DNA of 42,982 nt from a virus, in the IMG/VR virus record IMGVR_UViG_3300038701_001030, positions 1 to 42,982 of that record. One strand, written 5' to 3'. Position numbers and translations under genes: made by a program. The notes beneath the pieces were generated by a model, which was not told the origin of the DNA, did no database searches, and worked only from the letters and a program-made list of their open reading frames with translations. Positions 4,600 to 42,982 of the stretch are shown piece by piece. How positions within the stretch are numbered: position 1 is the first letter of the stretch; each line of letters begins with the position of its first letter.

Positions 4600-5043
4600 A
4601 TGAAAATTAAAAATATACCCCGAATCGATATTAACGCTGGCGAGGCTGGTAAATGGTTCGATTACCCGAAAGCTGCGGGCGTACGTTTTAGAGTGCGCCG
4701 CGCAACAAGTGCAACGGTTCAAGATGCAAAAAAGTCGTTTATAGACCAAATCGGGGCGCGAGGCGTGCCGCTGACAAGCGAACAACTGGAACAACTCGGT
4801 ATTATTGTTTCAGTGGCCGCCCTTGCAGACTGGGAGGGCATACTCGACGAAAACGACAAGCCCATACCGCACAGTGACGACGTCGCGCGCGAGGTGTTAA
4901 GTAACCCCGAGTACGAGGAGTTGCTCACGTTTATATCCGTGTCAGCATCCGATATCGATAACTACCGCGCCGAGGCGATCGCGAAAGAAAAAAAGCCCTC
5001 GAAGCGTGGGCAGCGTGGGAAGCGGCGAACGGCCACAACTTAG
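4600..5043 (+). CDS. Tail assembly chaperone (gpG-like, unshifted product)
   Basis: 147 aa directly upstream of the tape measure gene, with a slippery heptamer near its 3' end. Confidence 0.75.
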   Translation: MKIKNIPRIDINAGEAGKWFDYPKAAGVRFRVRRATSATVQDAKKSFIDQIGARGVPLTSEQLEQLGIIVSVAALADWEGILDENDKPIPHSDDVAREVLSNPEYEELLTFISVSASDIDNYRAEAIAKEKKPSKRGQRGKRRTATT

Positions 5044-5315
5044 CGTTTTACCAAGACGTAGCGCGTGAGACGGGGCGACCGCCGCGCGCGTTACTTAGTA
5101 GGCCAGTATTGCCTTTATCTTGCGAGGACGTAGCTAACGCGTTCTGTTTACTCAACAGTTACCGACCGCACGGCGCACAAGGTGAGCCGCGACTAATCAC
5201 GCTACAAGATGTAAAAACTTATTTAGACATACACCCGACCGACGACCCCGACCGATTCGTAACCCTATTACAGGCCACTGATTTGGCATTCATAAAGGCA
5301 GCGCCCAAAAAATGA
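4600..5315 (+). CDS. Tail assembly chaperone -1 frameshift fusion (gpGT-like)
   Basis: The -1 frame is open from the slip site at 4989-4995 to the stop at 5313-5315. It reads ...KEKK/ALEAWAAWEAANGHNLAFYQDVARETGRPP...APKK, about 238 aa. The 5109..5315 ORF in the track is the tail of this frame. Confidence 0.65.
4989..4995 (+). promoter_or_regulatory. -1 programmed ribosomal frameshift heptamer A_AAA_AAG
   Basis: Zero-frame codons are GAA AAA AAG, which gives the X_XXY_YYZ form. The site sits 48 nt before the gpG-like stop. Confidence 0.7.
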
Positions 5316-7645
5316 AACAACTTGGCATACGCGTAAAGATTGACGGCAGCGGCGCTGAATCTGGCGCGCGTAAAGTCAATAAATCGCTTGACAGTATTGA
5401 AAAGCAAAGCGGTTCTACGGGTCGCAGTCTTAAAACGCTGGCAGTTCAAGCACTAGCGACGTATTCCGTTATAGGGGCTACGCGCGCTATTGTCGACGCT
5501 ACGAATAAAATGCGCGGTTATGAGGTCGCATTAAAAACGGCGACCGGATCAACCGAGAACGCGGCGTCGTCGATGGCGTTCGTACGTAGCGAAGCCGAGC
5601 GGCTAGGACTGCAAACGCTGACACTAGCGGAAACGTATACCCAGTTTGCAGGCGCAGCACGTAAAACGAACTTGGAAGGCGAAGACACCCGCCAGGTGTT
5701 CACCTCGGTATCTGAAGCCGCTGCAGTAATGCAGTTGAGCGCCCAAGATACACAAGGGGCTATGAACGCCTTAACTCAAATGTTGAGTAAAGGCAAAGTG
5801 CAGGCCGAAGAGCTGCGAGGCCAACTCGGCGAGCGTATACCAGGCGCTTTTCGCATGGCAGCCGACGCGATGGGTGTCACACAAGCCGCACTAAACGATA
5901 TGCTAGACCGTGGCGAAGTTATAGCCGACGAGTTCCTACCACGTTTTGCGGAAGTACTACGCCGTGACATGGCAGGGGGCTTGCTCGACGCGGCGAACTC
6001 CGCACAAGCCAGTTTTAACCGCTTTGAAAATGCAGTCCTAGAACTTAAAATCGCAGTTGGTGAGGGCGGTCTAGTCGACGCGCTAGCCGGTGCGGCGGAT
6101 ATGGCGACCGCGTTTATTAACCAAGTGTTGCTATCGGGTCAGATAGTAGACGACACGCGCGTATACTTCGATTTGTGGGCGGCGGTACTGTTCCAAACCG
6201 AAGACCAGTTAAACGGGGTTAAACACGCACTCGGTGAAACGGGCGATTTTCTATTGATCCTCGGCGAGCACGCCGGCCAGTTTGTTAAAAGTGCGTTTTT
6301 TGAATTTCCGGCAAACATTAAAGCAGCTATCGCGATTGGTATTGCTGAATTCGGAAAACTTGGCAATGAAATACAGTTTTTCTTTGACAAGATCGACACC
6401 GCCTCTGCCATTGCCCGCGAAAATATGATATTCGCATTTAAAGGCTACACACTGGAAGGGGAGCGACTTTTCGCGCGCTTCGTTGATATGGTGGTTGGCG
6501 ACTTCCAATCATTACTAGCACGCATAGCTAATGCGGTGGGTAAAGTACCTGGACTCGATGGCGTTGCGCAGTCGATCCGAGATAGCGCGGCCGAGCTTTC
6601 CACGTTCGGCAACAATGAGGCGCAAGTCACGCAGCAGATTAACGCAGCAACCGAAGCCCACAACAGACAGTTAGCCGCCATTGATGTACTGGCGCAAGCT
6701 GACGCAGCAAGATACGAAGCGGTCAAGAGTGCGAGCGACCAATTTATAGTAGACACGCTACGCGAACGTGACGCCGTATTAGAAAGCGCAGCGGCACAAA
6801 GTGAAGCCCTGCGGATAATACGCGAGTCTAACGCCGCGAACGACGACACCGGCACGACGGGCACAAGCTCCGGTGGTGGTGATACTGGCGGCGGTACCAG
6901 CGGCGGTAGTAAAACGCTATTAGGTGCGTTCGGTTCCCTTCAAGATCAAATAGCAACGCAGCAAGAACAAGCGGACATACTGCGTGGCGAACGACTGCGA
7001 CTAATCGACGAAGCCGAGGCCGCAGGCCTTGAAGCTATTCGACCGTGGCATGAGTTGCGCGAGCGCGTCGAAGATGAACACATCGAGCGCCTAAACGAGA
7101 TTAACGCCGAGGGTCAGAGCGAGCAATACAAACTCTGGCAGTCTGGCATGCAAGGTAAGTTGAAGGTTACTAGTAGCATCCTCGGCCAAGTTTCTAAGCT
7201 CATGGAGTCCGAAAGCCGTACCCAGTTTGAAATCGGCAAAGCGGCGGCGATCAGTCAAGCGATTATTAATACTTACCAATCGGCAACCGGTGCCTACAAC
7301 GCGATGGCAGGCATTCCGTATATCGGGCCAGCCCTTGGAGCAGCAGCGGCAGCGGCAGCAATCGCGGCCGGTATTGCTAACGTCAACGCGATTCGGTCGC
7401 AGTCCTTCGGGAGTGCGGGCAGCGCGTCCGGTTCGTCCCCAAGTACAGGCGGCGCTTCTGCAAGTGGCGGGGCTAACGCACCGAGTACCGGCGGCGTGCC
7501 TGAAGGACAAGGCGAAACACCGCAAGAATTCAGTATCACAATAGTAAACCGCCGAGAAGGCGAACGCGACGAGGCTATAAGAGTGATTAGAAACATTAGG
7601 GAACTAGCCGAAGAGGGCGAGCCTATATTATTGGAGGCGTCATAA
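5312..7645 (+). CDS. Tape measure protein
   Basis: 777 aa, the longest tail gene. It is ATGA-coupled to the chaperone T-frame stop and has an Ala/Gln/Glu-rich helical sequence with Gly/Ser tracts. Confidence 0.9.
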   Translation: MKQLGIRVKIDGSGAESGARKVNKSLDSIEKQSGSTGRSLKTLAVQALATYSVIGATRAIVDATNKMRGYEVALKTATGSTENAASSMAFVRSEAERLGLQTLTLAETYTQFAGAARKTNLEGEDTRQVFTSVSEAAAVMQLSAQDTQGAMNALTQMLSKGKVQAEELRGQLGERIPGAFRMAADAMGVTQAALNDMLDRGEVIADEFLPRFAEVLRRDMAGGLLDAANSAQASFNRFENAVLELKIAVGEGGLVDALAGAADMATAFINQVLLSGQIVDDTRVYFDLWAAVLFQTEDQLNGVKHALGETGDFLLILGEHAGQFVKSAFFEFPANIKAAIAIGIAEFGKLGNEIQFFFDKIDTASAIARENMIFAFKGYTLEGERLFARFVDMVVGDFQSLLARIANAVGKVPGLDGVAQSIRDSAAELSTFGNNEAQVTQQINAATEAHNRQLAAIDVLAQADAARYEAVKSASDQFIVDTLRERDAVLESAAAQSEALRIIRESNAANDDTGTTGTSSGGGDTGGGTSGGSKTLLGAFGSLQDQIATQQEQADILRGERLRLIDEAEAAGLEAIRPWHELRERVEDEHIERLNEINAEGQSEQYKLWQSGMQGKLKVTSSILGQVSKLMESESRTQFEIGKAAAISQAIINTYQSATGAYNAMAGIPYIGPALGAAAAAAAIAAGIANVNAIRSQSFGSAGSASGSSPSTGGASASGGANAPSTGGVPEGQGETPQEFSITIVNRREGERDEAIRVIRNIRELAEEGEPILLEAS

Positions 7646-11883: not shown

Positions 11884-12996
11884 TCACGGCTTTTCAGCCG
11901 GAAGCACTAGCCCTGCGCTCGTTTCCGTCCATTCTATGTGGCCTTTTCGGTATATGTCTGTCGTGGTGCCAACTGCATGCCCTGCTAGTTTCTGCGCGTC
12001 GATCCCTTGGAGTTCGTATAGGTGGATGGCTAGCGCGCGAATCTCGTAGAACGTTGGTTTCTGGTTTCGGCTTAACTTATCGAATAGCCCTGTGTGCTCC
12101 CGCGCTCGCCTGAAATATGTTTCCAAAATATCAATGGTAATCATTGTCCAGTGTTCGAGGCGTTTAGCTAAGTGGACGCGAACGGGGCGGCGGTGGAGCA
12201 AGAACGGTGACGCAATGCCGTCATTGCAGTTTTTTATGACTCGCGCCAGTGGCGGTTCTATCTTAATTTTTAAATGGGCACTCTCGCCGTGCTTCTCCGT
12301 TTTTTGCTGTATCAAGTATAGATAGCCGTCTTTTATATCTCGTCGGGGTTGAATCTTCAGTAAGTCGCTTGGCCGCTGCGTGGTCTGCAATGCTAAATCC
12401 ATTGCGTTAACTAACCACGCATAGCCCAGCTCGGTAGCCGCGCCGCGTATAGCGTTGAACTGTTCTAAACTCAGGCGTGACCGTTGCCTCACCACTTTTT
12501 TCTGTATCGTTTTCGCAGGTAAATTGTCGTTGGTTAATCCCCTGGCTATGGCTTCCTTCCACATATCCACCATAAGCCCGCGCGTCGCACGACGAAGTGC
12601 GGCGGGCATCGTGTCGAGGTACGCGGCGACGTCTTTTAGTGTGATCGTTTCAAGCGAGAGTTCGCCGAGTCTCCGGCGTATGCCGTTGGTGCGCGTGAGA
12701 TATGATTTAACGGTGTTTTCGGCGAGTTCCCGCTCCGGTACTACTTCCGACATGAACAAGTCACACAGTTTATTTATCGTGTAGCCTTGTATTCCTAGCA
12801 CGCGTTCTACGACGTCGTCGCGTCCGATTAACTGGGCGTTTAACTCGATGGCGGCATCGATGGCAACCGATTTACTTTTAGATAGTCGGTGCGGTTTGCC
12901 GGTAATAGGGTGCTTGTACCAGTACCATCGCACCCTATCATCATAGTGCAGATGCTTAGGCCAATGGGCGCGGCTTGGTTTGCGTGGCCTACCCAT
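11884..12996 (-). CDS. int: Tyrosine integrase (lambda Int-like)
   Basis: 370 aa. N-terminal arm-binding-like sequence (LHYDDRVRWYWYKHPITGKPHRL) and a C-terminal LAGHAVGTTTDIYRKG segment with the catalytic Tyr. Confidence 0.9.
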   Translation of the reverse strand: MGRPRKPSRAHWPKHLHYDDRVRWYWYKHPITGKPHRLSKSKSVAIDAAIELNAQLIGRDDVVERVLGIQGYTINKLCDLFMSEVVPERELAENTVKSYLTRTNGIRRRLGELSLETITLKDVAAYLDTMPAALRRATRGLMVDMWKEAIARGLTNDNLPAKTIQKKVVRQRSRLSLEQFNAIRGAATELGYAWLVNAMDLALQTTQRPSDLLKIQPRRDIKDGYLYLIQQKTEKHGESAHLKIKIEPPLARVIKNCNDGIASPFLLHRRPVRVHLAKRLEHWTMITIDILETYFRRAREHTGLFDKLSRNQKPTFYEIRALAIHLYELQGIDAQKLAGHAVGTTTDIYRKGHIEWTETSAGLVLPAEKP

Positions 12997-17660: not shown

Positions 17661-17673
17661 TGTATAAACTCAT
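17476..17673 (-). CDS. Hypothetical 65-aa ORF coupled to the polymerase stop
   Basis: Its ATG overlaps the polymerase stop (ATGA). It overlaps the N-terminal extension of the VRR-NUC ORF in another frame, so only one of the two readings is likely real. Confidence 0.35.
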   Translation of the reverse strand: MSLYSEKQSIKVTELVRDAQARANTARRPYAVVRLPFSGKLSVQPITANQVGEVLERINPRKKGG

Positions 17674-19799
17674 TTTCTGTATGCCTCGCAGTGGAACCCC
17701 TCGGCCGCAATGGGCATGCCCGCCGCCCAGTCGGGTACGGTTTGTAAAAGTTCGGTAAACGTGTCGATCTTGTCGGCGTCGCCTTCGGATATAACTTCAT
17801 CGTGCACGGTTAAAACTATGAGGAACCCGCCGCGCTCAATAAGCCTCATGTTGTGCGCCATAATGTCGCGGCTCCATGACTGACATGCGTTCTCCACGAA
17901 CTTACCGCCGTACAAGTGTTGTACTGTCCACTGCTTAGTAACGCCGTCAACACCCATACACGTTAGCCCGTCTTTAGTTATGCGCGGGTTGTAGTAGGTC
18001 AGGTAGTTACCGGACGACATACGGCACAACAACCAGTTGTGGCTGTGTAAACTGCCGTAGATAAATGTAAGGTGTTCGCCCGCTTTGAATTCTAAGCCAG
18101 GGTGCTCTATCGCGTTTCGTGCTGCGTCCTCGCACGCGTGCCACAGTGACACAATGGCGGGGTGACGCGCTCGCCATGACAGTTTGACCGCTTCACTGGC
18201 GATCCATTCTAGTTCGTCGATATCTCCGGCGCGTTCCTGCCCCCACGTTTCGTAGTTATATTTTGCTTTTTCTATAATGTCGCTATCGAAAGTGGACGCG
18301 ATAACGTGCCAGTAATCCGACATTCGCACGCCGTAGGTTTTGGCGAATGTTTGGAGACCGCCCACGCCGCCCTGATAGCCGAGGGCTAGCTCTGGAACCT
18401 TACCGAATGTATTGCGGTTCGTGCTGTCGACATCGGCGGGGCGGCAGCCGAGAATACCGCCGGCGGTTATCTTGTATAAGTCGTCGCCGGTGCCGTTGTC
18501 GAACGCGCGAAACGCATCAAGTTTCCATTGCTCGCCTGCAAGGTACGCGTTAGCGCGTCCCTCAATGTTCGCGAGGTCAGCGACTAACAGCACTTTACCT
18601 TTCGGCGCTTTCACGACTGCGCGTAGTGCGGCGCTTCCGTGTAGCATTAGGTTTTCATGAGTAAAGTACTCGTACCCACCTTTTAAAGCGTCGATATATG
18701 AGTTGATGCGGTGCTGTTTAGGTAGCCCACGGCTCGGTAGATTCTGCGGTTGGAACGTACGACCCGCCCAGCGCCGCGTGCGACTCGCGCCGCAGAACTG
18801 AAGCCCGCCACGGAAACGGCCGTCTTTAGATATCGCGGGCGCAAGTTTCGCGTATTTGGCCGTGCTGGTTTTGTTAGCCTGCAGTGATAGCGTAATAAGT
18901 TCTTTGGCGGTTTCGGGTATGCTGGTGTTGAGTAGCGGTTCTAGTGTTGCTTTCTGCGTGTTTTCAATGCCTAGATTGTATGTGCTGTTTAAGTGGTCTA
19001 GGAACTTCGCCCGCTGCGTTGGCGTACATACGCCGCCCACTAATTGTTTAAACCTGTCTTTTATGCGTTTCTTTTCACGCTCTGAGGCCACCGCACCGGC
19101 TTCGACTAATTCGCGGTCGACTTCGAATCCACGGTCGTTAATGCGTTGGTCTAGGTGGTAATCCGCCCAGTTATCCGGCGAAGTGTTCCAAGTGGGTAAG
19201 CGTTTCGCTATCTCGCGCATAGCTTCCACGTCGCGGATTGCGTACTGCTTAAACCGTTCCCACTCTTCTGGGTGCGTGTATTTTGTGTAGCGCGTCGCGT
19301 TGTGGTTGCTGGGCGCAGGTTTACAGAATCGCTGTATATACTTCTTACCCTCTTTTACTTTGGCAAGGTTACTGCCTAACCCCATCACTTCACCTAGCTT
19401 GTCAAGCGAAGCGGGTAGGCCGTGCGCCATCGCCTGCACCATGATGCACTCCCACTCGGCAGGATCGAAGGTGCATAGTAACTCGTGGGCTAGTATCGTG
19501 CGGTCGAACATCGAGTTAAACGCGACTTTTTTACAATCGCGAGACGCTGCAAGTAACTTAAACTCTTCTAACTGTTTTTCGGCGTTCGGGTCGTCGTAGT
19601 AGCTGTCGTAGTCCAGCGGGTCAAAGTACCAATGTTCGTCGTAGTACTCTTCGGGCATAGTTAAGTCGATCAGTTGCACCGGCTCGTCATCGACGGCATA
19701 CGGGATTAACATCACTTCCGCCGTTTCCGCATAAGCGTACGTACCCGCGCTAATATCGCGTTTGTTATACGTTTCTGTGTCGAGCCATAGGGTGTGCAT
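17670..19799 (-). CDS. Family-A DNA polymerase with an N-terminal 3'-5' exonuclease domain
   Basis: 709 aa. Motifs seen: ExoI (LDTET), motif A (VADLANIEGR), motif B (RNTFGKVPELALGYQGG) and motif C (VLTVHDEV). Confidence 0.9.
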   Translation of the reverse strand: MHTLWLDTETYNKRDISAGTYAYAETAEVMLIPYAVDDEPVQLIDLTMPEEYYDEHWYFDPLDYDSYYDDPNAEKQLEEFKLLAASRDCKKVAFNSMFDRTILAHELLCTFDPAEWECIMVQAMAHGLPASLDKLGEVMGLGSNLAKVKEGKKYIQRFCKPAPSNHNATRYTKYTHPEEWERFKQYAIRDVEAMREIAKRLPTWNTSPDNWADYHLDQRINDRGFEVDRELVEAGAVASEREKKRIKDRFKQLVGGVCTPTQRAKFLDHLNSTYNLGIENTQKATLEPLLNTSIPETAKELITLSLQANKTSTAKYAKLAPAISKDGRFRGGLQFCGASRTRRWAGRTFQPQNLPSRGLPKQHRINSYIDALKGGYEYFTHENLMLHGSAALRAVVKAPKGKVLLVADLANIEGRANAYLAGEQWKLDAFRAFDNGTGDDLYKITAGGILGCRPADVDSTNRNTFGKVPELALGYQGGVGGLQTFAKTYGVRMSDYWHVIASTFDSDIIEKAKYNYETWGQERAGDIDELEWIASEAVKLSWRARHPAIVSLWHACEDAARNAIEHPGLEFKAGEHLTFIYGSLHSHNWLLCRMSSGNYLTYYNPRITKDGLTCMGVDGVTKQWTVQHLYGGKFVENACQSWSRDIMAHNMRLIERGGFLIVLTVHDEVISEGDADKIDTFTELLQTVPDWAAGMPIAAEGFHCEAYRK

Positions 19800-19801
19800 G
19801 T

Positions 19802-20335
19802 TTACGCTCGCAACTTCGCGTTAATGTGCTGCATTGTTGCCGATAGGTACTTGAACTCGTGGCGGGCGTCGTCCAACGCGGTATGCTCTACACCTTCGAA
19901 TGGTGTCGCTGTTCTGATATGCGGTGCTAGGGCTTCGAGGGTGCGCGCGTCGCGGACGTTCCAGAATTGCCAAGGGGGTTGCGCGCGGTACTGCTGGTAT
20001 GCGTTCTCGATAATAGAAACGTCAAACGTTGCACCGTTACCCCACGGATGCACGCCCCCGTTGCCGTTTACAAAATACTTAAGCTCTTTCAGAACGGCGG
20101 TTAGTGGCCGAGACCCGTTAAACGCTTCGTCACGTGCGGCGGCTTCCTGTTCGCTCCACCACTCTAACGTACGGAGCGAGTCGGTGCGGTCGGGTTGCGA
20201 TTCGCGGGAAATGCCTTCGTAAAATTCGGCTTTGACTTCGCCGGTGGCTAGGTCGCCGATCACTGCGCCTATGCTTAAAATTTTGGCCGTCTGTGCGGTG
20301 TCCGTTGTCTCGATATCAATCACTATGTCGTTCAT
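19802..20335 (-). CDS. DnaQ-like 3'-5' exonuclease
   Basis: 177 aa with ExoI (IDIETTD) and ExoIII (HTALDDARHE) motifs. Confidence 0.75.
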   Translation of the reverse strand: MNDIVIDIETTDTAQTAKILSIGAVIGDLATGEVKAEFYEGISRESQPDRTDSLRTLEWWSEQEAAARDEAFNGSRPLTAVLKELKYFVNGNGGVHPWGNGATFDVSIIENAYQQYRAQPPWQFWNVRDARTLEALAPHIRTATPFEGVEHTALDDARHEFKYLSATMQHINAKLRA

Positions 20336-20361
20336 GGTTTTTATCCCTTAGATTAAATCCA

Positions 20362-20377
20362 CCGCCCCGAAGGGCGG
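20362..20377 (-). promoter_or_regulatory. GC-rich UUCG-tetraloop hairpin between the SSB and exonuclease genes
   Basis: The minus-strand RNA reads CCGCCC-UUCG-GGGCGG (6-bp stem). There is no clean U tract, so this is more likely an attenuator or mRNA-stability element than a full terminator. Confidence 0.4.
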
Positions 20378-20394
20378 CTTGGTTTCAGTTACTA

Positions 20395-20991
20395 CTAACC
20401 AAACTGGTTAATAGCCGCGGCGGGCGGTTGCTGCGCCGGTGCTGCGTTCGCGGCGGTATCGGTCGCACCTGGCACCGCTCCGAACTCGGCGGCCACTTTA
20501 TCCTTGTCGACATGCGCGGCACTAAGTGGCTCGCCGTCGCCTGCGAACTGTACCGCGAGTAGTTCCGCGTTTACTCGCTTGCCGTGCTTGTTGTCCTGCG
20601 ACCATATACGCACTTTTATGTTCGCGTAACACCCGTCGTAGATTGGGTTGTTTTCGGCTTGGTCGCATGCTGTAGCGTTACCGAACAGTACAATAGGGCG
20701 GCCGTCGTCTACGTGCCGGTTTGCTGATAGGCCAAGGGTGCCGTACATTTCTGGTTTTACACGATCTTCACCGCTGCGTAAGCAGTACTTATCGCTAGGT
20801 AACCGATCGACGCCGAGATCTTTAGATGGCACCTCATTTACGTACTGCTCTAATTTCTGTACGTCGGCCGCGTTCGGGTCTAGCATGAACAACCCATTAT
20901 AGTTCTGCGGTTTGCCTGTCTCTTTGTTCCTCATCGGCGTAAATAGGTGGTTAAATCTTACGCGTACGTTTCTGATTAAAAATTCGCTCAT
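20395..20991 (-). CDS. ssDNA-binding protein (DUF2815-type)
   Basis: 198 aa. The N-terminal sequence NVRVRFNHLFTP... and its position next to the DUF2800 nuclease and PolA match a known phage replication module. Confidence 0.6.
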   Translation of the reverse strand: MSEFLIRNVRVRFNHLFTPMRNKETGKPQNYNGLFMLDPNAADVQKLEQYVNEVPSKDLGVDRLPSDKYCLRSGEDRVKPEMYGTLGLSANRHVDDGRPIVLFGNATACDQAENNPIYDGCYANIKVRIWSQDNKHGKRVNAELLAVQFAGDGEPLSAAHVDKDKVAAEFGAVPGATDTAANAAPAQQPPAAAINQFG

Positions 20992-21021
20992 GGTTGTGGT
21001 TCTCCGTTGTGGTTTTAGAAA

Positions 21022-22335
21022 TTACATGAATTGACTAATGTCGATCTCGGTTGTGGGTGCCGTCTCCGGCGCGGGTTGCTGCGTTGGTTGTGGTTGCTTG
21101 GTTGTCGCTTCCGGTTCGACCTTCCGTTCTAGCTGCGGTTTTTGGCCGCTGTCATCGATCGGTGCGAAGCCGTCCGTGGGTTTAGTGAACGTCACCGCTT
21201 TGCCGGCGGCAGATTCGGGTACTAGCTTTAATTTGCCAGGCGGTCGCGTGTAGTGTTTTTCTAACTTCGCTTCGTCAAGGCCTCGAATTTTCCACTCTTT
21301 TAGCGCCTGCGTCGGTGTCAACAGTTTTAATTTAAACCGCTCTTTTTCTTTAAACTTGGCGCGTGCGAGTACTTTCTCGGCTTTGTCCTCGTCTATCCAC
21401 TTTCGATTGCTCTGACCCTCGACGGCTTTCACCCCTGGCAACGTTTCACCGTTGCGGATCGCGTGTAGTGCGTTTTCTTCGACTGCGTCCAAGAACTTAC
21501 GAATAGCACCCGCGCTTAGCATTATTTGCGCGGTTTCTTCTTTGGTAAGCTCGGTCGCGTTACGTATTGTTAGCTGTTGTGTCATTGGTTTAAACCCCTC
21601 AATAGCTGCTAGTTGGGCTGTGTCTGCAAGTGCACGGCATGTCGGCTTAGCTTTACACCACCGGCAACCTTTCTCGCTGGGTGTGAACGTCGGCTCTTTA
21701 CTAAGTGCGCGGTCTACTGCGTGCTTTACTTTGACGCCGAAGTCGTACAGCTCGGCCGTGGTCAGCTCGTACACGTCGGCTTCGTCCCTAACTCTCGGTT
21801 GCCACACTACAAGCCTGATAGTGTCTATTTGTCCGTTGTCGTATTCTTCAAGCGCGCCGAGTGCGTAGAGTGAAAGCTGTTTATTCTGGTAGGCGTCCAC
21901 CGGCGTGTATCCATACTTAAGATCAACAACAGTCAATACGTTCTCGTGCACTGCGATATAGTCCGCCGTGCCGAACCCGTCGTGTGTCCACGTCGACAGG
22001 TCGACGCGTTGTTCTACGTGGTGTTCCCCTGGCAAGTTGCGGCAATAGTCAATATAGAGCTGTAAGGCTTCGACCATTTCCGTATCAACGATGATCGGCT
22101 CAATGAACTTTTCACCTTCCAGTGATTCGAACCGCTGACCTTTCCACTTGATAGCGTCGGTGCCGTTTAGTAAGCACTGTTCGGCGACGTGGTGCGCGAC
22201 GGTTCCCGTCTGAGCATGTATGCTGGGCGTGTCTGGTTTGCCTTCCTGTGCCTGAATAGCCGCCGCGCACGTCATCCACGTTTCTGCACCGGACGCGCCG
22301 AAGCGGTGGTGTTTAGGTGTCTGTTGCGTTCCCAT
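21022..22335 (-). CDS. PD-(D/E)XK nuclease (DUF2800 / Cas4-like Cys cluster)
   Basis: 437 aa with N-terminal FGASGAETWMTCAAA...GTVAHHVAEQ, central D..DLKYG, and CRWCKAKPTCRA. Confidence 0.65.
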   Translation of the reverse strand: MGTQQTPKHHRFGASGAETWMTCAAAIQAQEGKPDTPSIHAQTGTVAHHVAEQCLLNGTDAIKWKGQRFESLEGEKFIEPIIVDTEMVEALQLYIDYCRNLPGEHHVEQRVDLSTWTHDGFGTADYIAVHENVLTVVDLKYGYTPVDAYQNKQLSLYALGALEEYDNGQIDTIRLVVWQPRVRDEADVYELTTAELYDFGVKVKHAVDRALSKEPTFTPSEKGCRWCKAKPTCRALADTAQLAAIEGFKPMTQQLTIRNATELTKEETAQIMLSAGAIRKFLDAVEENALHAIRNGETLPGVKAVEGQSNRKWIDEDKAEKVLARAKFKEKERFKLKLLTPTQALKEWKIRGLDEAKLEKHYTRPPGKLKLVPESAAGKAVTFTKPTDGFAPIDDSGQKPQLERKVEPEATTKQPQPTQQPAPETAPTTEIDISQFM

Positions 22336-22565
22336 TAGTGCACCGCCTTGTTGAGTGCTGATTTTCGTTCTAAGTGCAACGTTACGAGCCCGTCGAGTAT
22401 TTCCGCTCGGGAGTCACTAGTGGTAAAGAAGTGCTTCATTTCGGCTATGATTGCTATTACCGTAAGCCGCTTTAGTTGCTCGTTAACTATACCGACGGCT
22501 TCCTCGCCTAATTGCAGTACAAGACGGCGGCGAGCCTCGCCTTGTATCCCTGTTGTGCCTAACAT
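22335..22565 (-). CDS. Hypothetical early protein
   Basis: 76-aa ORF sharing single nucleotides with both neighbouring genes. Confidence 0.5.
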   Translation of the reverse strand: MLGTTGIQGEARRRLVLQLGEEAVGIVNEQLKRLTVIAIIAEMKHFFTTSDSRAEILDGLVTLHLERKSALNKAVH

Positions 22566-22996
22566 TACGCCGCCGCTCCCGTGTTAGCCCCATATGTGTT
22601 GCATCGGTTGATAAACGCTTGACGGTTTTCAATTGCTAGATTGGGTATGCGTTGTGCACCGAATTCGGCGAATACGCCGGCCATAGCTTCACCGCCGAAC
22701 TTAGGCACGAACGCCGCTACCGCCGCTTGACATTCTTTATACAGCGGACTGTCGGCGCTCGTCGGGTCGGCGGGTTTGGCTTCTGGCGCGGGTTGTTGGG
22801 TTTGTTGTGCCGGCGGTTGCTGCGTCGCCTGCGCTATCTGCGCCGCTTGTGCCTGTTGCGCTGCGACTTGCTCGGCGACAGGTTGCGCTTGTGGTATTGC
22901 GTTGTTGGCTGCCGCTGGTGGCTGTAGTCCTTTTAAGAACGCGTTAGTTTGTTCTGTTAACGCGATAAGTTTTTCCAGTTGGCTTTCGATAGTCAT
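22565..22996 (-). CDS. Hypothetical early protein with a Q/A/P-rich linker
   Basis: 143 aa, the first long ORF of the leftward block, with a GGAG RBS. Its low-complexity centre shares TQQPAPE with the nuclease tail. Confidence 0.6.
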   Translation of the reverse strand: MTIESQLEKLIALTEQTNAFLKGLQPPAAANNAIPQAQPVAEQVAAQQAQAAQIAQATQQPPAQQTQQPAPEAKPADPTSADSPLYKECQAAVAAFVPKFGGEAMAGVFAEFGAQRIPNLAIENRQAFINRCNTYGANTGAAA

Positions 22997-23018
22997 GGTC
23001 TGATTCTCCGAGGTTTGG

Positions 23019-23252
23019 TTATTTAAAAATTTCTAACGGGAAAACGGCCTCGCGCTGGAGACTGTTTTTAATCTGTTTGTAGGCGCGTAGTTTTCGACGG
23101 TAGCGGCCTAAACGGGCGCTGGGTGTGGTTTTGTTGTTGAGTACACACAGCCACGATAGGCGGTGATTTTTATTATTCGATAGCCGGCAATGCAGCAAAC
23201 GGTCAGCGGTAAGCGGTTTTTTGGCCGGGTTGTTCTTTGTGAAAAATACCAT
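23019..23252 (-). CDS. Very basic 77-aa ORF (doubtful; possible N-like or spurious)
   Basis: Arg/Lys-rich (GRYRRKLRAYKQIK). It lies between the tRNA-like gene and the early operon, and no convincing RBS was seen. Confidence 0.25.
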   Translation of the reverse strand: MVFFTKNNPAKKPLTADRLLHCRLSNNKNHRLSWLCVLNNKTTPSARLGRYRRKLRAYKQIKNSLQREAVFPLEIFK

Positions 23253-23272
23253 TTTCGTGTTCCTTGTTTCGC

Positions 23273-23300
23273 GTTACTGGTTACTGGTTACTGATTACTT
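23273..23300. repeat. Tandem heptamers (GTTACTG)x3 plus ATTACTT
   Basis: Copies at 23273-23279, 23280-23286 and 23287-23293, then a degenerate fourth unit. The array lies about 10 nt from the 3' end of the tRNA-like gene. Confidence 0.9.
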
Positions 23301-23309
23301 AAAACTAAG

Positions 23310-23383
23310 TGCAAGGGGGCGGGATTCGAACCCGCGACCCGCGATCTTTGTGTCGCTTGCTCTTCCCACTGAGCTACCCCTCG
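23310..23383 (-). tRNA. tRNA-like gene with a non-canonical anticodon arm (isotype undetermined)
   Basis: Reverse complement: G-CGAGGGG-TA-GCTC-AGTGGGAA-GAGC-A-AGCGA-CACAAAGA-TCGCG-GGTC-GCGGG-TTCGAAT-CCCGC-CCCCTTG-C. The acceptor, D and T arms are canonical. The anticodon stem core GCGA/TCGC encloses 8 nt with no U. Confidence 0.6.
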
Positions 23384-23684
23384 CATTGTTTTTAAAGCAG
23401 AGGACGGGACGGGCGTTTCGTCATTTGGTGGGTGTTTACTCCGCGAATGAAATGTCACACCTGCCCCGTCTTGCTGTATGCGTCGGAGATTGCCTACTTG
23501 AGCGCTCGTTCGTGCAATCTCGTTTGCATGTGCTTAAGGTACACCCTAGAAAGGGGTATGACAAGCACATTTCAAGGGTATTTAATGCCCTTTAGTTATC
23601 GAGCGGGGGTGGTTGTGGTGTGTTTATGCTAGAGAATACGGCAGTTTTGGGCGGTTTTATGCTTGGGTACTTAAAGCACCAGTT

Positions 23685-23858
23685 TTAAGATTTAAGCGGC
23701 AACGGTTGCCGGAGTAGGGCGTTTATTTGGGCTTGTAATTCGTCACGCTGTTCAGGCGTTAAGCACTCCCAAGCCGCCGCGACGCTTGTGTTTTCAAGGG
23801 TTATGAGTGTTTTTTGCTCGTGGGGTAGGTTGAGCCAAGGTGGTGTATTTAAATCCAT
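23685..23858 (-). CDS. Small hypothetical protein (57 aa, below the ORF-track cutoff)
   Basis: Hand-translated as MDLNTPPWLNLPHEQKTLITLENTSVAAAWECLTPEQRDELQAQINALLRQPLPLKS. It has non-biased composition and the same orientation as the repressor gene. Confidence 0.45.
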   Translation of the reverse strand: MDLNTPPWLNLPHEQKTLITLENTSVAAAWECLTPEQRDELQAQINALLRQPLPLKS

Positions 23859-23897
23859 TACCGCTTTCCATGAATAATACTGAATAAGATGGCGGTA

Positions 23898-23927
23898 ATA
23901 TTACGGAATATCTAAACGAATTGTAAA
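23898..23927 (-). promoter_or_regulatory. Candidate sigma70 promoter (TTTACA-N18-TAATAT) with an overlapping 10-bp palindrome
   Basis: On the minus strand, -35 is at 23927-23922 and -10 at 23903-23898. The perfect palindrome GTAATATTAC (23895-23904) overlaps the -10. Confidence 0.35.
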
Positions 23928-23954: not shown

Positions 23955-24272
23955 TTATTTTTTCTTCTTAGCCATTTCGAGGATCGTATTTTTCATGATA
24001 GTGCGGTGCGGTTCTTCGAGGTGCTCCCATGATATAAGCAGTTCGAGGCCTTCGGGGCTTATGTTGTCAATGTCTGAGGTGCCGAACCGGAGCCAGCCCG
24101 GGGAGACGTTCAGACCTTTTGCGATCTCTAATATTTTCGTGGGGTTTTTGTTTTTGCCGCGTTCTATCGACTTTATGTTGTCCATATCGACGCCGCAAAG
24201 CTCGGCCAGTTCGGTCTGTGTTAGGCCTTTTTGTAGCCTTATCGTTCTAAGTCGTGTCGCTAAATCACTCAT
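23955..24272 (-). CDS. XRE-family HTH repressor (CI-like)
   Basis: HTH segment LRTIRLQKGLTQTELAELCGVDMDNIKSIERG. The ATG at 24272 overlaps the lipoprotein stop (ATGA), and the longer track ORF (to 24317) overlaps that gene. No S24 peptidase domain is present. Confidence 0.8.
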   Translation of the reverse strand: MSDLATRLRTIRLQKGLTQTELAELCGVDMDNIKSIERGKNKNPTKILEIAKGLNVSPGWLRFGTSDIDNISPEGLELLISWEHLEEPHRTIMKNTILEMAKKKK

Positions 24273-24715
24273 AATTTTTGAAGTAGTTCGCTTTCGAGCG
24301 TGCCGAGGCTGACGCACTGTAGTGTGATATCTTGCGCCGCGCTACCTGGCTTGTACTCCGATGTAATGCGCGCTTTTACTTGTATTCGCTCTTCTGAGGC
24401 GATGACGTTAAACGCAACGGTGGAGTGTGTCCGCTTATCTCGGAGGTAGTTGATACCCATCGTCGAACCGCAGTCCGCATCGGTCAGCGCGAGGCGGGTA
24501 TTTTTCGGCGCGGTAGTTAATACACCGGATGCGGGATCGCTTGAGCTTATATCGTATCCCGCTAGCGCGAGCACTTGTTTAGCTTTTATTAACGCTTGTT
24601 CTGTCGATGGGTGGGGGTTCGGTTTCGCGTGTTCTTGCTCGATGGCGGTTGGCGCCTGGTACGTCGTCGCGCATCCGCTAAGCATTAAAGTAAAGGCAGC
24701 AATTTGTAACCGCAT
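24269..24715 (-). CDS. Lipoprotein co-transcribed with the repressor
   Basis: 148 aa with a signal peptide and lipobox (MRLQIAAFTLMLSGC). An AGGGGGA RBS precedes it, and it is the first gene of the leftward immunity transcript. Confidence 0.75.
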   Translation of the reverse strand: MRLQIAAFTLMLSGCATTYQAPTAIEQEHAKPNPHPSTEQALIKAKQVLALAGYDISSSDPASGVLTTAPKNTRLALTDADCGSTMGINYLRDKRTHSTVAFNVIASEERIQVKARITSEYKPGSAAQDITLQCVSLGTLESELLQKL

Positions 24716-24807
24716 GTAATCCCCCTTGTCTATCTAGTTTGCTGATTCTGCACCCATACTGTGCCTGATTCTAGGAATGTCGCACCCATTCAAAAACAGT
24801 GTTTTTA

Positions 24808-24835
24808 TTGACAATGGGTGTGAGGCACCCATAAT
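24808..24835 (+). promoter_or_regulatory. Rightward early promoter (TTGACA-N16-CATAAT)
   Basis: -35 at 24808-24813 and -10 at 24830-24835. The predicted start site falls 0-2 nt from the cro ATG at 24844, which has no Shine-Dalgarno sequence. Confidence 0.6.
24814..24832. promoter_or_regulatory. Operator palindrome ATGGGTG-N5-CACCCAT
   Basis: A perfect 7-bp inverted repeat fills the promoter spacer and reaches into the -10. Additional GCACCCAT half-sites lie at 24750-24757 and 24782-24789. Confidence 0.65.
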
Positions 24836-24843
24836 CTAGTGCA

Positions 24844-27859: not shown

Positions 27860-27925
27860 GATTTTCGCCGGTTGTTCTGAGCAACATGTCGCTGAGAGCA
27901 ACAATAAGTAATTAATAAAACAACA

Positions 27926-28396
27926 ATGGGGGTATGTGCTGTGAACCACACACGAACTGAATGGCTAGACCGATACGACGAGTTAATCGAATCGCTAGAA
28001 AGTAAACGGGGCACCACACGTGCAGACCTGTTGCCCAAACTCGACAGAATGATACAGGTTGCGCGCGCAACACGTGACGCCATCGAACAGACGGACGACG
28101 GCGACACAATTAGTATCGTGCAGATAAACATACAGTTTTTTAATTGGTTCACGCAGGTGAAAGCGACACCGGCGCACGTGTTCAGCGAAGGAACACAGGT
28201 ACCGGAACCGGACGAAGAACCACGACATGCAATCACCATTACGCTGAACGGCCGACAGACTGGCAAAACGCGAGCCATAGCGGAACGCCTAGAAGAACTC
28301 CGTGCAGCGTCAGACGGTGAAATTGTCGAAGTGTCGAGAGAACGATTACAGAAAATCGCTGCAGTACTCGATGACCTGAAACAGAAAGGGGACTAA
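27926..28396 (+). CDS. Hypothetical protein
   Basis: 156-aa acidic helical ORF. An alternative GTG start at 27941 is preceded by GGGGG. Confidence 0.55.
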   Translation: MGVCAVNHTRTEWLDRYDELIESLESKRGTTRADLLPKLDRMIQVARATRDAIEQTDDGDTISIVQINIQFFNWFTQVKATPAHVFSEGTQVPEPDEEPRHAITITLNGRQTGKTRAIAERLEELRAASDGEIVEVSRERLQKIAAVLDDLKQKGD

Positions 28397-28400
28397 CAGC

Positions 28401-28613
28401 ATGATACGCGGCCGACTAATCACAACATTCAACGAGCTGTACTCATGGTGTCTAGTCAAGAATCAGCCTATTTTCCTACGCTCGAAACAAGGCGGCACCT
28501 ACACGGAACAGGGGTGGCGACACGTATCGAGCACACCGTTCGGCGCACTCACGAAAATGCTATCAAGTCACCGGATTTTTAGAGCACATAAGCCAGGTAC
28601 GGAGGTTTCATAA
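28401..28613 (+). CDS. Hypothetical protein
   Basis: 70-aa ORF whose TAATG stop overlaps the start of the Q gene. Confidence 0.5.
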   Translation: MIRGRLITTFNELYSWCLVKNQPIFLRSKQGGTYTEQGWRHVSSTPFGALTKMLSSHRIFRAHKPGTEVS

Positions 28614-29011
28614 TGAGCACATCGGCTAACGTAGTAATTTCTACAACGGGCGTCTGGTATCTGACCGACGATATAGACTCAATTCTCACCGACTGGGGTA
28701 AGTGGACGCGCACGAAGTCCGTGCCCCACACCGGATACCCTGCGCAGATACCCACGCGTAGGCTTATGGGTGCGGGAGTGGTCGCAGGTGCCTCGTTTGA
28801 CGACGACCAAGGCATCGAAGTGGAACGCGCTATCGCGTCGCTTGAGAGGCGCAACGCGGACGGCGAGCGGCGGGCGTCAGTCGTCAAGCACTCGTATCTG
28901 CGGCAACGCGGTGAGCGTGCCATTGCGCACGCGTTACGCATACCGCGCGGCAAGGTGCGCGAGGACTTAGCCGCCGCGCGATATTGGGTAGAGTGTAAGT
29001 TATTCGGGTAA
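28613..29011 (+). CDS. Late-gene antiterminator Q (small Q family)
   Basis: 132 aa. The pattern LTDWGKW...DDDQGIEVERAI..L......HSYL....ERAIAHALRIPRGKVREDLAAARYWVECKL matches small phage Q antiterminators. It lies upstream of a promoter plus tandem terminators and the lysis genes. Confidence 0.65.
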   Translation: MSTSANVVISTTGVWYLTDDIDSILTDWGKWTRTKSVPHTGYPAQIPTRRLMGAGVVAGASFDDDQGIEVERAIASLERRNADGERRASVVKHSYLRQRGERAIAHALRIPRGKVREDLAAARYWVECKLFG

Positions 29012-29084: not shown

Positions 29085-29363
29085 ATGATTAAATCGTTTA
29101 ACCACAAAGGGCTTAAGGCTTTTTTCGAGAAAGGCACGAAGAAAGGAATCAACCCAAATCACGCTGATAAACTTAGCGTACGGTTAGCGATCTTAGATGC
29201 TGCGGAAACGTTAGACCAGATAGACCAGCCGGGTTTTCGACTCCATGAGTTGAGCGGCGACCTTGACGGGCAACACGCTATTGACGTTTCGGGCAATGTC
29301 CGCCTGTTTTTTAAATTCGAAGACGGCAACGTCTACCTACTCGACTACGGAGACTATCACTAA
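29085..29363 (+). CDS. higB: HigB-type toxin (plasmid maintenance killer protein family)
   Basis: 92 aa, MIKSFNHKGLKAFFEKGTKKGINPNHADKL...RLHELSGDL.G.HAIDVSGNVRLFFKFEDGNVYLLDYGDYH. This is the typical HigB sequence pattern, and the toxin precedes the antitoxin. Confidence 0.85.
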   Translation: MIKSFNHKGLKAFFEKGTKKGINPNHADKLSVRLAILDAAETLDQIDQPGFRLHELSGDLDGQHAIDVSGNVRLFFKFEDGNVYLLDYGDYH

Positions 29364-29671
29364 TGGCTACAAATAGAATGCACAACCCCCCGCACCCTGG
29401 TGCGGTTTTCAAAGAGCTTTACGTCGATGAGCTAGGCCTCACGCAGAAAGAAATATGCGCGGGTAGCGGCCTAGGTAAATCGATGCTTAGTAAGTTTTTA
29501 AACGGTAAGTACCCGTGTACGCCTGAGATCGACATGCGGCTGTCAAAGCTATTCGGCAAAACGCCGGGCTTGTACCTACGCATGCAAACGGCTTTCGACA
29601 TGTTCCACGCGGAAAAGGAACTGCGCACGCAGCTACGAAAAATCAAACCAATGAAACTAAAAGCGGCGTAG
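29363..29671 (+). CDS. higA: HigA-type antitoxin (XRE HTH)
   Basis: 102 aa, MHNPPHPGAVFKELYVDELGLTQKEICAGSGLGKSMLSKFLNGK. Its start overlaps the higB stop (TAATG). Confidence 0.85.
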   Translation: MATNRMHNPPHPGAVFKELYVDELGLTQKEICAGSGLGKSMLSKFLNGKYPCTPEIDMRLSKLFGKTPGLYLRMQTAFDMFHAEKELRTQLRKIKPMKLKAA

Positions 29672-42855: not shown

Positions 42856-42982
42856 CATGCCAATGATCGACACGGATTCAGCAGAATTCAAAGAAAAATA
42901 TATTTCAATCGACGACGCAAAAGCAGCAACAGAAAGCGAAGTCGAAGGACTGAAAAACAAGAATAAAGAACTACTCGGGAAG
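42856..42982. repeat. Terminal direct repeat copy 2 (identical to 1..127)
   Basis: This copy holds a duplicate of the scaffold-gene start (ATG at 42857). See copy 1. Confidence 0.95.

Follow-up and report, generated by a model that had tools for sequence, protein, structure and literature searches.

An intact tRNA body with a U33-less, eight-nucleotide anticodon loop beside the immunity genes of a temperate siphophage: a possible non-decoding tRNA mimic

The virus sequence IMGVR_UViG_3300038701_001030 from IMG/VR was analyzed over its whole length of 42,982 bp, which is referred to below as the window, and a single tRNA-type gene was found in it by ARAGORN, at positions 23309-23384 on the minus strand. 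This gene is genuinely derived from a tRNA, with an intact body and a non-canonical anticodon arm. It lies where the immunity genes of the phage give way to the early-left replication operon, and within the collections searched it is unique to this phage. The anomaly of its anticodon loop is genuine and unexplained. The interpretation that we favor, and hold only tentatively, is that the gene specifies a tRNA mimic that would be excised from a longer transcript and would not decode; we infer its transcription, processing, stability, failure to decode and role as a decoy.

The coordinates given by ARAGORN are exactly those proposed in a preliminary description of this DNA. The program assigns no isotype, labels the gene "tRNA-???" and reads its anticodon as the four bases caaa, at position 35. 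The Rfam tRNA model RF00005 matches 23311-23383 on the same strand over the whole model (1-71), with a score of 45.4 bits compared to a gathering score of 29 (E=1.2e-6, computed for the entire window). This interval holds tRNA positions 1-73, and the ARAGORN span adds G-1 and two 3′ bases. As read from the sequence, the acceptor stem is CGAGGGG/CCCCUUG, and U8 and A9 follow its 5′ strand. The preliminary description gave the same 7 bp and called the stem perfect, which is not accurate because one of its pairs, G2·U71, is a wobble. In the D arm GCUC and GAGC flank AGUGGGAA, and A26 comes next; GGUC forms the variable loop, and the T arm reads GCGGG-UUCGAAU-CCCGC; U8-A9 and the two arms thus read as they had been described. 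All of the invariant bases are there (U8, A14, G18G19, A21, G53, U54, U55, C56 and A58), and pairing is complete outside the anticodon arm, with 7 bp plus G-1:C73, 4 bp and 5 bp. The body therefore has what is expected of a canonical tRNA: the acceptor stem has 7 bp, the D arm includes G18G19, the T arm is of the GUUCRANYC type, and the score exceeds the gathering threshold. The energy of the cloverleaf is -33.8 kcal/mol versus a minimum free energy of -36.3 kcal/mol, a gap of 2.5 kcal/mol.

At its ends the gene resembles a tRNA-His. The G at 23384 (G-1) can pair with C73 at 23311 to form an 8-bp acceptor helix, and an encoded G-1 facing C73 is the bacterial tRNA-His signature. The GUG anticodon of tRNA-His is missing, since the loop is CACAAAGA, and the earlier observation of a G-1 opposite C73 without a GUG anticodon is borne out. 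The same pair can alternatively be read as part of an 8-bp acceptor stem with the A at 23310 as discriminator. C73 is followed by ACUU, and the CCA end is consequently not encoded, again as had been noticed.

The departures from the canon are confined to the anticodon arm (23340-23357, minus strand), and there are three of them: a surplus loop base, the loss of U33 and an A27·G43 mismatch. The 5′ strand AGCGA (23357-23353) and the 3′ strand UCGCG (23344-23340) enclose the loop CACAAAGA (23352-23345), which is 8 nt long and contains no U, and the stem consists of four Watson-Crick pairs with the A27·G43 mismatch at the fifth position. The 4-bp core GCGA/UCGC around a U-less 8-nt loop, which had been described before, is agreed on by the sequence, the Rfam alignment and the fold of the arm alone (4 bp and an 8-nt loop, -4.2 kcal/mol); that description has to be corrected only by the mismatch at the fifth stem position. 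A covariance-model alignment had been named as a check that could refute the odd loop, and it was run. The RF00005 alignment contains a 7-for-6 insertion in the anticodon loop, that is, one surplus base, marks the 27:43 pair as non-standard and does not yield a normal 7-nt loop. The 5-bp anticodon stem, 7-nt loop, U33 and purine 37 of a canonical elongator tRNA are thus not found in this arm. Because the loop has no U, no one-base deletion, whether biological or an assembly error, yields Y32-U33-NNN-R37. The Logan assembly of SRR15330770 was made separately, probably from the same sample, and it is identical (100%) across 7,314 bp spanning the gene. The two assemblies concur, and the odd loop is therefore not the artefact of one assembler.

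Searches for relatives of the gene demonstrated how isolated it is. A pattern search found no close copy of the tRNA body in IMG/VR or in 185,579 species genomes, and megablast and blastn with 22800-23900 and with 1-25000 gave no DNA matches in 50,697 phage records, nor were there any in E. coli genomes. The anticodon-arm pattern alone gave three matches, all within coding sequence, which were taken as chance. Relatives of the neighboring exonuclease have 26-34% identity in IMG/VR and GTDB genomes and at best 41% among 5.8 billion proteins, and no tRNA was found near the exonuclease homologues in the scanned IMG/VR loci (26-34% identity). The 77-aa product of the open reading frame (ORF) next to the tRNA gene and the repressor had only self-matches among the 5.8 billion proteins. 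In terms of the parent isotype, no robust assignment can be made. BLAST with the 76-nt gene returned generic tRNA similarity of 73-83%, to Ile in E. coli and to Phe, Ile, Met, Trp and Arg in phages. A 25-nt 3′ segment is common to tRNA-Ser genes and two Planctomycetota tRNA-Lys(UUU) genes, and the alignment to the latter places one extra C:G acceptor pair, giving 8 bp with an A discriminator; this likeness is only suggestive, as the search pattern itself selected for it. Under E. coli-type rules, C73 together with the short variable arm would exclude Leu and Phe identity, and G-1:C73 would point to His, provided that G-1 is retained after RNase P cleavage.

The preliminary description suggested that the gene might be a quadruplet or frameshift reader, a suggestion for which the genome provides no support. 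UUG, the triplet for a CAA anticodon, is used less than any other Leu codon of the phage (11%), and the 48 in-frame UUU-G sites in the phage genes are not avoided. UUUG +1 junctions joining two long open frames number 2, compared to a mean of 1.7 per quadruplet, and both candidates are on a doubtful strand. The genome's one programmed frameshift is an ordinary -1 event that does not depend on UUUG, and it belongs to the tail-assembly-chaperone pair G/GT. The G ORF occupies 4600-5043 on the plus strand, the slippery A_AAA_AAG lies near its end at 4989-4995, and the -1 frame from the slippery site is open to 5315, immediately before the tape-measure gene (5312-7645). The gene shares the 8-nt anticodon loop of quadruplet decoders. 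It does not share a retained U33 and an origin by one-base insertion, the loop having no U, and cognate sites in genes that need a shift were not found.

The recurrence of the loop was searched for as CACAAAGA at the correct spacing from the T loop in IMG/VR, the metagenome set and the GTDB genomes. One true case was found in IMG/VR (L026), which ARAGORN calls "tRNA-???(caaa)" and which has an identical 8-nt loop on a strongly different, Gly-like body with U73. This gene has its own promoter-like and terminator-like sequences, with holin, endolysin and terminase genes shortly downstream; it is missing from relatives at 64% TerL identity and occurs in no annotated phage. The metagenome set contains this phage again, as L122. 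Neither the metagenome (108 matches) nor the GTDB (56 matches) scan gave another independent tRNA with an 8-nt loop, and the other pattern matches that overlapped tRNAs were genes that look intron-containing, some of them archaeal, or that carry longer anticodon-arm insertions. Insertions of 10-20 nt in the anticodon arm were seen in tRNA genes of three metagenome contigs (L047 3484-3571, L111 and L135) and of a Bathyarchaeota and a Nanoarchaeota genome (L152 and L153), which are probably intron-containing tRNAs misfolded by the bacterial mode of ARAGORN.

A looser CACAAA-NN scan was also performed; being motif-directed and having no control motif, it is no measure of enrichment. Among the matches listed, a lineage of four phages (L235, L239, L245 and L254) and the unrelated L297 share the loop ACAAAAU with a C-G closure and a 27:43 mismatch, and a tRNA cluster of a jumbo phage (L312) contains a 6-nt CACAAA loop. 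The gene of the four-phage lineage (L235 5233-5306) is 92-99% identical among its members, has its own promoter and terminator, and carries C33 and AAA at the anticodon position. The homologous locus of Caudovirus D_HF5_2C (L351, OR148986.1 ~27880-27960) is occupied by another tRNA-like RNA, in which the stem has 6 bp, the loop has 10 nt and the T stem is degenerate; it is annotated within a hypothetical protein. This RNA is clearly incapable of decoding, and the locus looks like a family of tRNA-derived small RNAs. The lineage and D_HF5_2C together show that tRNA-shaped RNAs with arms unlike those of decoders are retained in some phage lineages, but such RNAs elsewhere do not make the gene at 23309-23384 one of them. 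The L026 loop, the ACAAAAU loop in two unrelated lineages, one of them extending across four phages, and the CACAAA loop in L312 are the basis for a broader and rather improbable proposal. This proposal is that a scattered and undescribed class of phage genes combines a perfect tRNA body with an A-rich loop (CACAAA...) lacking a U-turn, its members being decoys or binders and not decoders. Members of such a class might engage tRNA-targeting defense nucleases, or they might pair with the anticodon loop of tRNA-Lys(UUU), which is rich in U.

Two other sets of unusual phage tRNA genes were observed. In Sulfitobacter phage EE36phi1 (L199 298-373) and Erythrobacter phage XM05 (L200 297-372), both phages of alphaproteobacteria, a tRNA-Ile(GAU) gene has the 7-nt loop CCGAUAA with C33 in place of the near-universal U33; the tRNA cluster of EE36phi1 (Pro, Ile, Ser) lacks annotation in its record. 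A 128-kb IMG/VR contig (L028 2101-2538; the same in L115) carries three tandem tRNA-like genes with near-identical acceptor stems (AGUCAGG/CCUGACU), anticodon regions of very unequal size (inserts of 8-42 nt in the Rfam alignments) and Rfam scores of 37-51 bits.

The genome that carries the gene is complete, as bases 1-127 of the window are identical to 42856-42982 and this 127-bp terminal overlap indicates a circular genome of ~42,855 bp. The phage is a temperate siphophage with scaffold, major head, tape-measure, portal and large terminase genes, a Q-like antiterminator and a tyrosine integrase, and its DNA polymerase A is ~41% identical to BPP-1-type phage enzymes. About 430 nt of the early-left operon are untranslated, and the tRNA gene is set within them, on the same strand. 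Gene-family matches and the ORF map place it, as had been proposed, with the immunity genes on one side and the early-left replication operon on the other. On the minus strand, the immunity unit contains an XRE/HTH_3 repressor-type gene (23955-24317; PHROG and Pfam matches) and, upstream of it, a lipoprotein gene (24269-24715) with an LSGC lipobox. The 148-aa product of the latter has no homologues in PHROGs or Pfam; it may be made by the prophage and act at the cell surface or in exclusion. A consensus scan detected the promoter-like site TTTACA-18-TAATAT (23898-23927, minus strand; 9/12) a short way downstream of the repressor gene. By this match it is a candidate, and the likely one, for the early-left promoter, which would drive the tRNA gene. 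The scan detected no promoter-like site nearer to the tRNA gene and no terminator-like site on the minus strand from 23955 to 23252. With no promoter-like or terminator-like site of its own, and with its seat in a structured non-coding stretch of the same strand, the gene is probably co-transcribed with the early-left operon, which is the simplest reading.

The leftward unit opens, upstream of the tRNA gene, with an ORF of 57 codons that has no family match (23685-23858, minus strand). Between this ORF and the tRNA gene is an untranslated structured leader of ~300 nt (23385-23684, minus strand) with several long hairpins, a fold z-score of -3.4 and none of 100 shuffles as stable; besides the tRNA, no Rfam family was found in the leader or region at E<=10. 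Positions 23604-23570 read CGCUCGAUAAC followed by the hairpin AAGGG...CCCUU, which by eye only is nut-site-like. Antitermination of the N/nut type was considered and rejected, with boxA searches at or below chance. Tandem Repeats Finder reported 3.9 tandem CAGUAAC heptamers (RNA sense; 23273-23299, minus strand) that begin 12 nt past C73, just before the ribosome-binding site of the next ORF; a protein-binding repeat, an iteron and a product of slippage are all conceivable identities for them. That ORF, directly downstream of the tRNA gene, is a very basic orphan of 77 codons (23019-23252, minus strand) whose sole match is itself, and it may or may not be a real gene. It is followed by the early-left replication and recombination genes (17670-22996, minus strand; identified by family matches), which encode a 143-aa protein, a 76-aa protein, a DUF2800/PD-(D/E)XK exonuclease, a Gp2.5/Enc34-type single-stranded DNA-binding protein, a 3′-5′ exonuclease and DNA polymerase A. 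On the immunity unit's other side, a near-consensus rightward early promoter (TTGACA-16-CATAAT, 24808-24835) overlaps one of two mutually inverted 24-nt repeats with GGGTG/CACCC (24767-24790 and 24813-24836), and the repeats are probably operators. Farther away, downstream of the Q-like antiterminator (28613-29011), a type II pair of a HigB-like toxin (PF05015, E=3e-20) and a helix-turn-helix antitoxin is encoded at 29085-29671 on the plus strand; a link between this toxin and the A-rich tRNA loop is speculation.

If the gene specifies a non-decoding mimic, the RNA would be made as part of the early-left transcript from the 23927-23898 site on prophage induction or infection and would fold as a tRNA. 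RNase P would cut its 5′ end, the tRNA 3′-end enzymes would trim its 3′ end, and CCA would be added post-transcriptionally, as none is encoded. A loop of eight bases without U33 would make no standard U-turn and would be a poor substrate for the ribosomal A site. The mimic would then be seen as a stable tRNA shape by host tRNA nucleases, by processing or modification enzymes and possibly by HisRS via G-1:C73, and the excision of the tRNA shape would also sever the early-left leader as a by-product. The missing U33, the negative outcomes of the decoding tests and the precedents of retained tRNA-like RNAs speak for this reading. That the damage is confined to the anticodon arm makes slow neutral decay less likely, although it does not speak against one recent damaging event.

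Several observations weigh against the mimic. A tRNA nuclease, an RNA repair enzyme or any other partner for a decoy was not found among the ORFs scanned, and the only RNA-targeting function among them is HigB/HigA, which acts on mRNA. There is no relative of the locus in the collections searched, and distant phage relatives have no tRNA at the equivalent place, so that evidence of conservation for the gene is nil. The identity of the L026 loop could be a coincidence, since by a rough estimate a single case is at about chance level. Transfer RNAs with a mutated U33 retain some activity, and failure to decode is consequently not proven. Finally, one recent mutation event in a normal tRNA would leave the same picture.

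That event is the core of the first competing explanation, in which an ordinary tRNA was acquired and then recently crippled by a single change of the anticodon arm (an indel with substitutions, or patchy recombination); its RNA may still be made and processed, without function. We regard this history as quite possible though open to real doubt. It would account for a singleton that is carried by no relative of the phage, for three defects that all fall in the functional center, and for a loop that has no target and for which codon usage offers no rationale; L026 with the same loop is likewise alone among its relatives at 64% TerL identity, and "tRNA-???" calls by ARAGORN are not rare, another having arisen by chance in L047. 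It is less easily reconciled with the flawless remainder of the molecule, which requires the damage to be very recent or a single event, with the failure to find a near-identical intact parent in IMG/VR or the 185,579 species genomes, and with the fact that no single-base change recovers a canonical loop. A second explanation, which we consider unlikely, is that the gene is a non-canonical decoder of UUG or UUU triplets or of the UUUG quadruplet with a +1 shift, perhaps charged with His via G-1:C73 and protected from nucleases by its loop. Loops of 8 nt can work, as in SufB2 (PMC7803779) and the yeast mitochondrial tRNAThr1, which reads CUN (PMC3113583), and the addition of G-1 to tRNAThr1 permits efficient histidylation (PMC3113583). 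The body is also intact with a G:C-rich T stem, ARAGORN proposes the anticodon caaa (Leu/Phe), and C33 in the two roseophage tRNA-Ile(GAU) genes indicates that phage tRNAs can depart from U33. However, position 33 here is neither U nor any pyrimidine, and to our knowledge the described natural and selected quadruplet readers all keep U33. The identity elements speak against Leu and Phe under E. coli rules, as stated above, and neither the low use of UUG and the unavoided UUU-G sites nor the unenriched UUUG junctions and the -1 type of the genome's frameshift are in keeping with a decoder.

The position of the gene raises the improbable alternative of a cis-acting or regulatory leader element. 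It might be an RNase P and 3′-end cleavage site by which the upstream ORF and read-through from the immunity genes would be uncoupled from the replication operon, or an excised immunity RNA like P4 CI and P1/P7 C4. The gene is seated in a long structured early-left leader (z=-3.4) without a promoter or terminator of its own that could be found, and P4 CI and P1 C4 occupy such a position in early-operon leaders. However, neither the leader of the early-left operon nor the operon downstream, the mRNA of the repressor or the early transcript to the right offers a complementary partner for the loop, and the loop duplex energies were weaker than those of shuffled loops. The loop complement UCUUUGUG is absent from nearby sense transcripts, and no C4-type Rfam family was found at E<=10. 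An antisense or immunity RNA was rejected on these grounds, and the full canonical D/T core exceeds the needs of a cleavage signal. A phage attachment site (attP), in the form of a copy of a host tRNA gene or an integration scar, is very hard to credit. The phage does have a tyrosine integrase, and enzymes of this kind often recombine in anticodon loops. Its gene (11884-12996), however, lies 10 kb away with no tRNA fragment beside it, which indicates that the tRNA gene is not attP. The cloverleaf is full-length and not a 3′ fragment, and genome searches found no host tRNA that matches the 3′ half of the gene plus the anticodon stem.

Comparison to known systems places the gene near several of them and inside none. 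Enlarged-loop tRNAs have been noted in a phage that has many relatives, with no known part in frameshifting (Atkins et al. 2016, PMC5009743). They are similar to the present gene in being phage-encoded and otherwise well formed, with an enlarged anticodon loop and no demonstrated function, but they are conserved across many phages, whereas the present gene is a singleton without U33 and with a possible 8-bp acceptor helix. The SufB2/sufD +1 suppressors also have one surplus base in an 8-nt loop. They arose by a single-base insertion in a normal isoacceptor and kept U33 and a recognizable anticodon (PMC7803779); in the present gene no one-base deletion brings back a normal loop, and its phage has no UUUG-dependent frameshift. 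The yeast mitochondrial tRNAThr1(UAG) has an 8-nt loop and is derived from tRNA-His, with G-1 deciding His identity (PMC3113583). Its triplet reading belongs to a reassigned code, and its synthetase has co-evolved with it, in contrast to the present phage, which shows neither reassigned codons nor a synthetase dedicated to the gene. For phage tRNAs whose 7-nt loop is altered, an evasion of the defense nucleases that cleave tRNAs has been proposed (PMC10264068), and the tRNA-Lys of T5 acting against PARIS (PMC11464382) also belongs with the phage tRNAs whose anticodon-loop substitutions are proposed or shown to escape tRNA-targeting defenses. The present loop likewise departs from the host type, and the gene is placed for predicted early expression. 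Nuclease-evading tRNAs are substituted at the positions that the nuclease recognizes, but keep a 7-nt loop and their cognate anticodon and still decode, unlike this gene, which has eight loop bases and no assignable anticodon. P4 CI and P1-P7 C4 are, like this predicted RNase P substrate, small structured RNAs encoded in the leader of their own early operon beside the immunity region. They act by loop complementarity within their own transcript, and the present RNA has a full tRNA cloverleaf, no target and no match to a family model of that type.

Because it has no U33, no origin by one-base insertion, no assignable anticodon and no cognate frameshift sites, the gene joins a loose kind, phage tRNA-like genes with non-canonical anticodon loops, and no mechanistically defined family. 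As one gene in one metagenomic phage, it is of value as a pointer toward a census of such loops and not as a stand-alone finding. If the gene is dead, it would be a caution for annotation, in that a covariance score of 45 bits is no guarantee of a working tRNA. Should it prove to be a decoder, it would be one of few natural tRNAs that work with eight bases in the loop and without U33, which would be relevant to quadruplet-codon engineering. If its RNA is made and stable, the phage would possess a natural tRNA body with a loop unable to decode by the usual rules, and if that RNA is a decoy, it would represent a non-decoding strategy beside the phage tRNAs that replace those cleaved by defenses.

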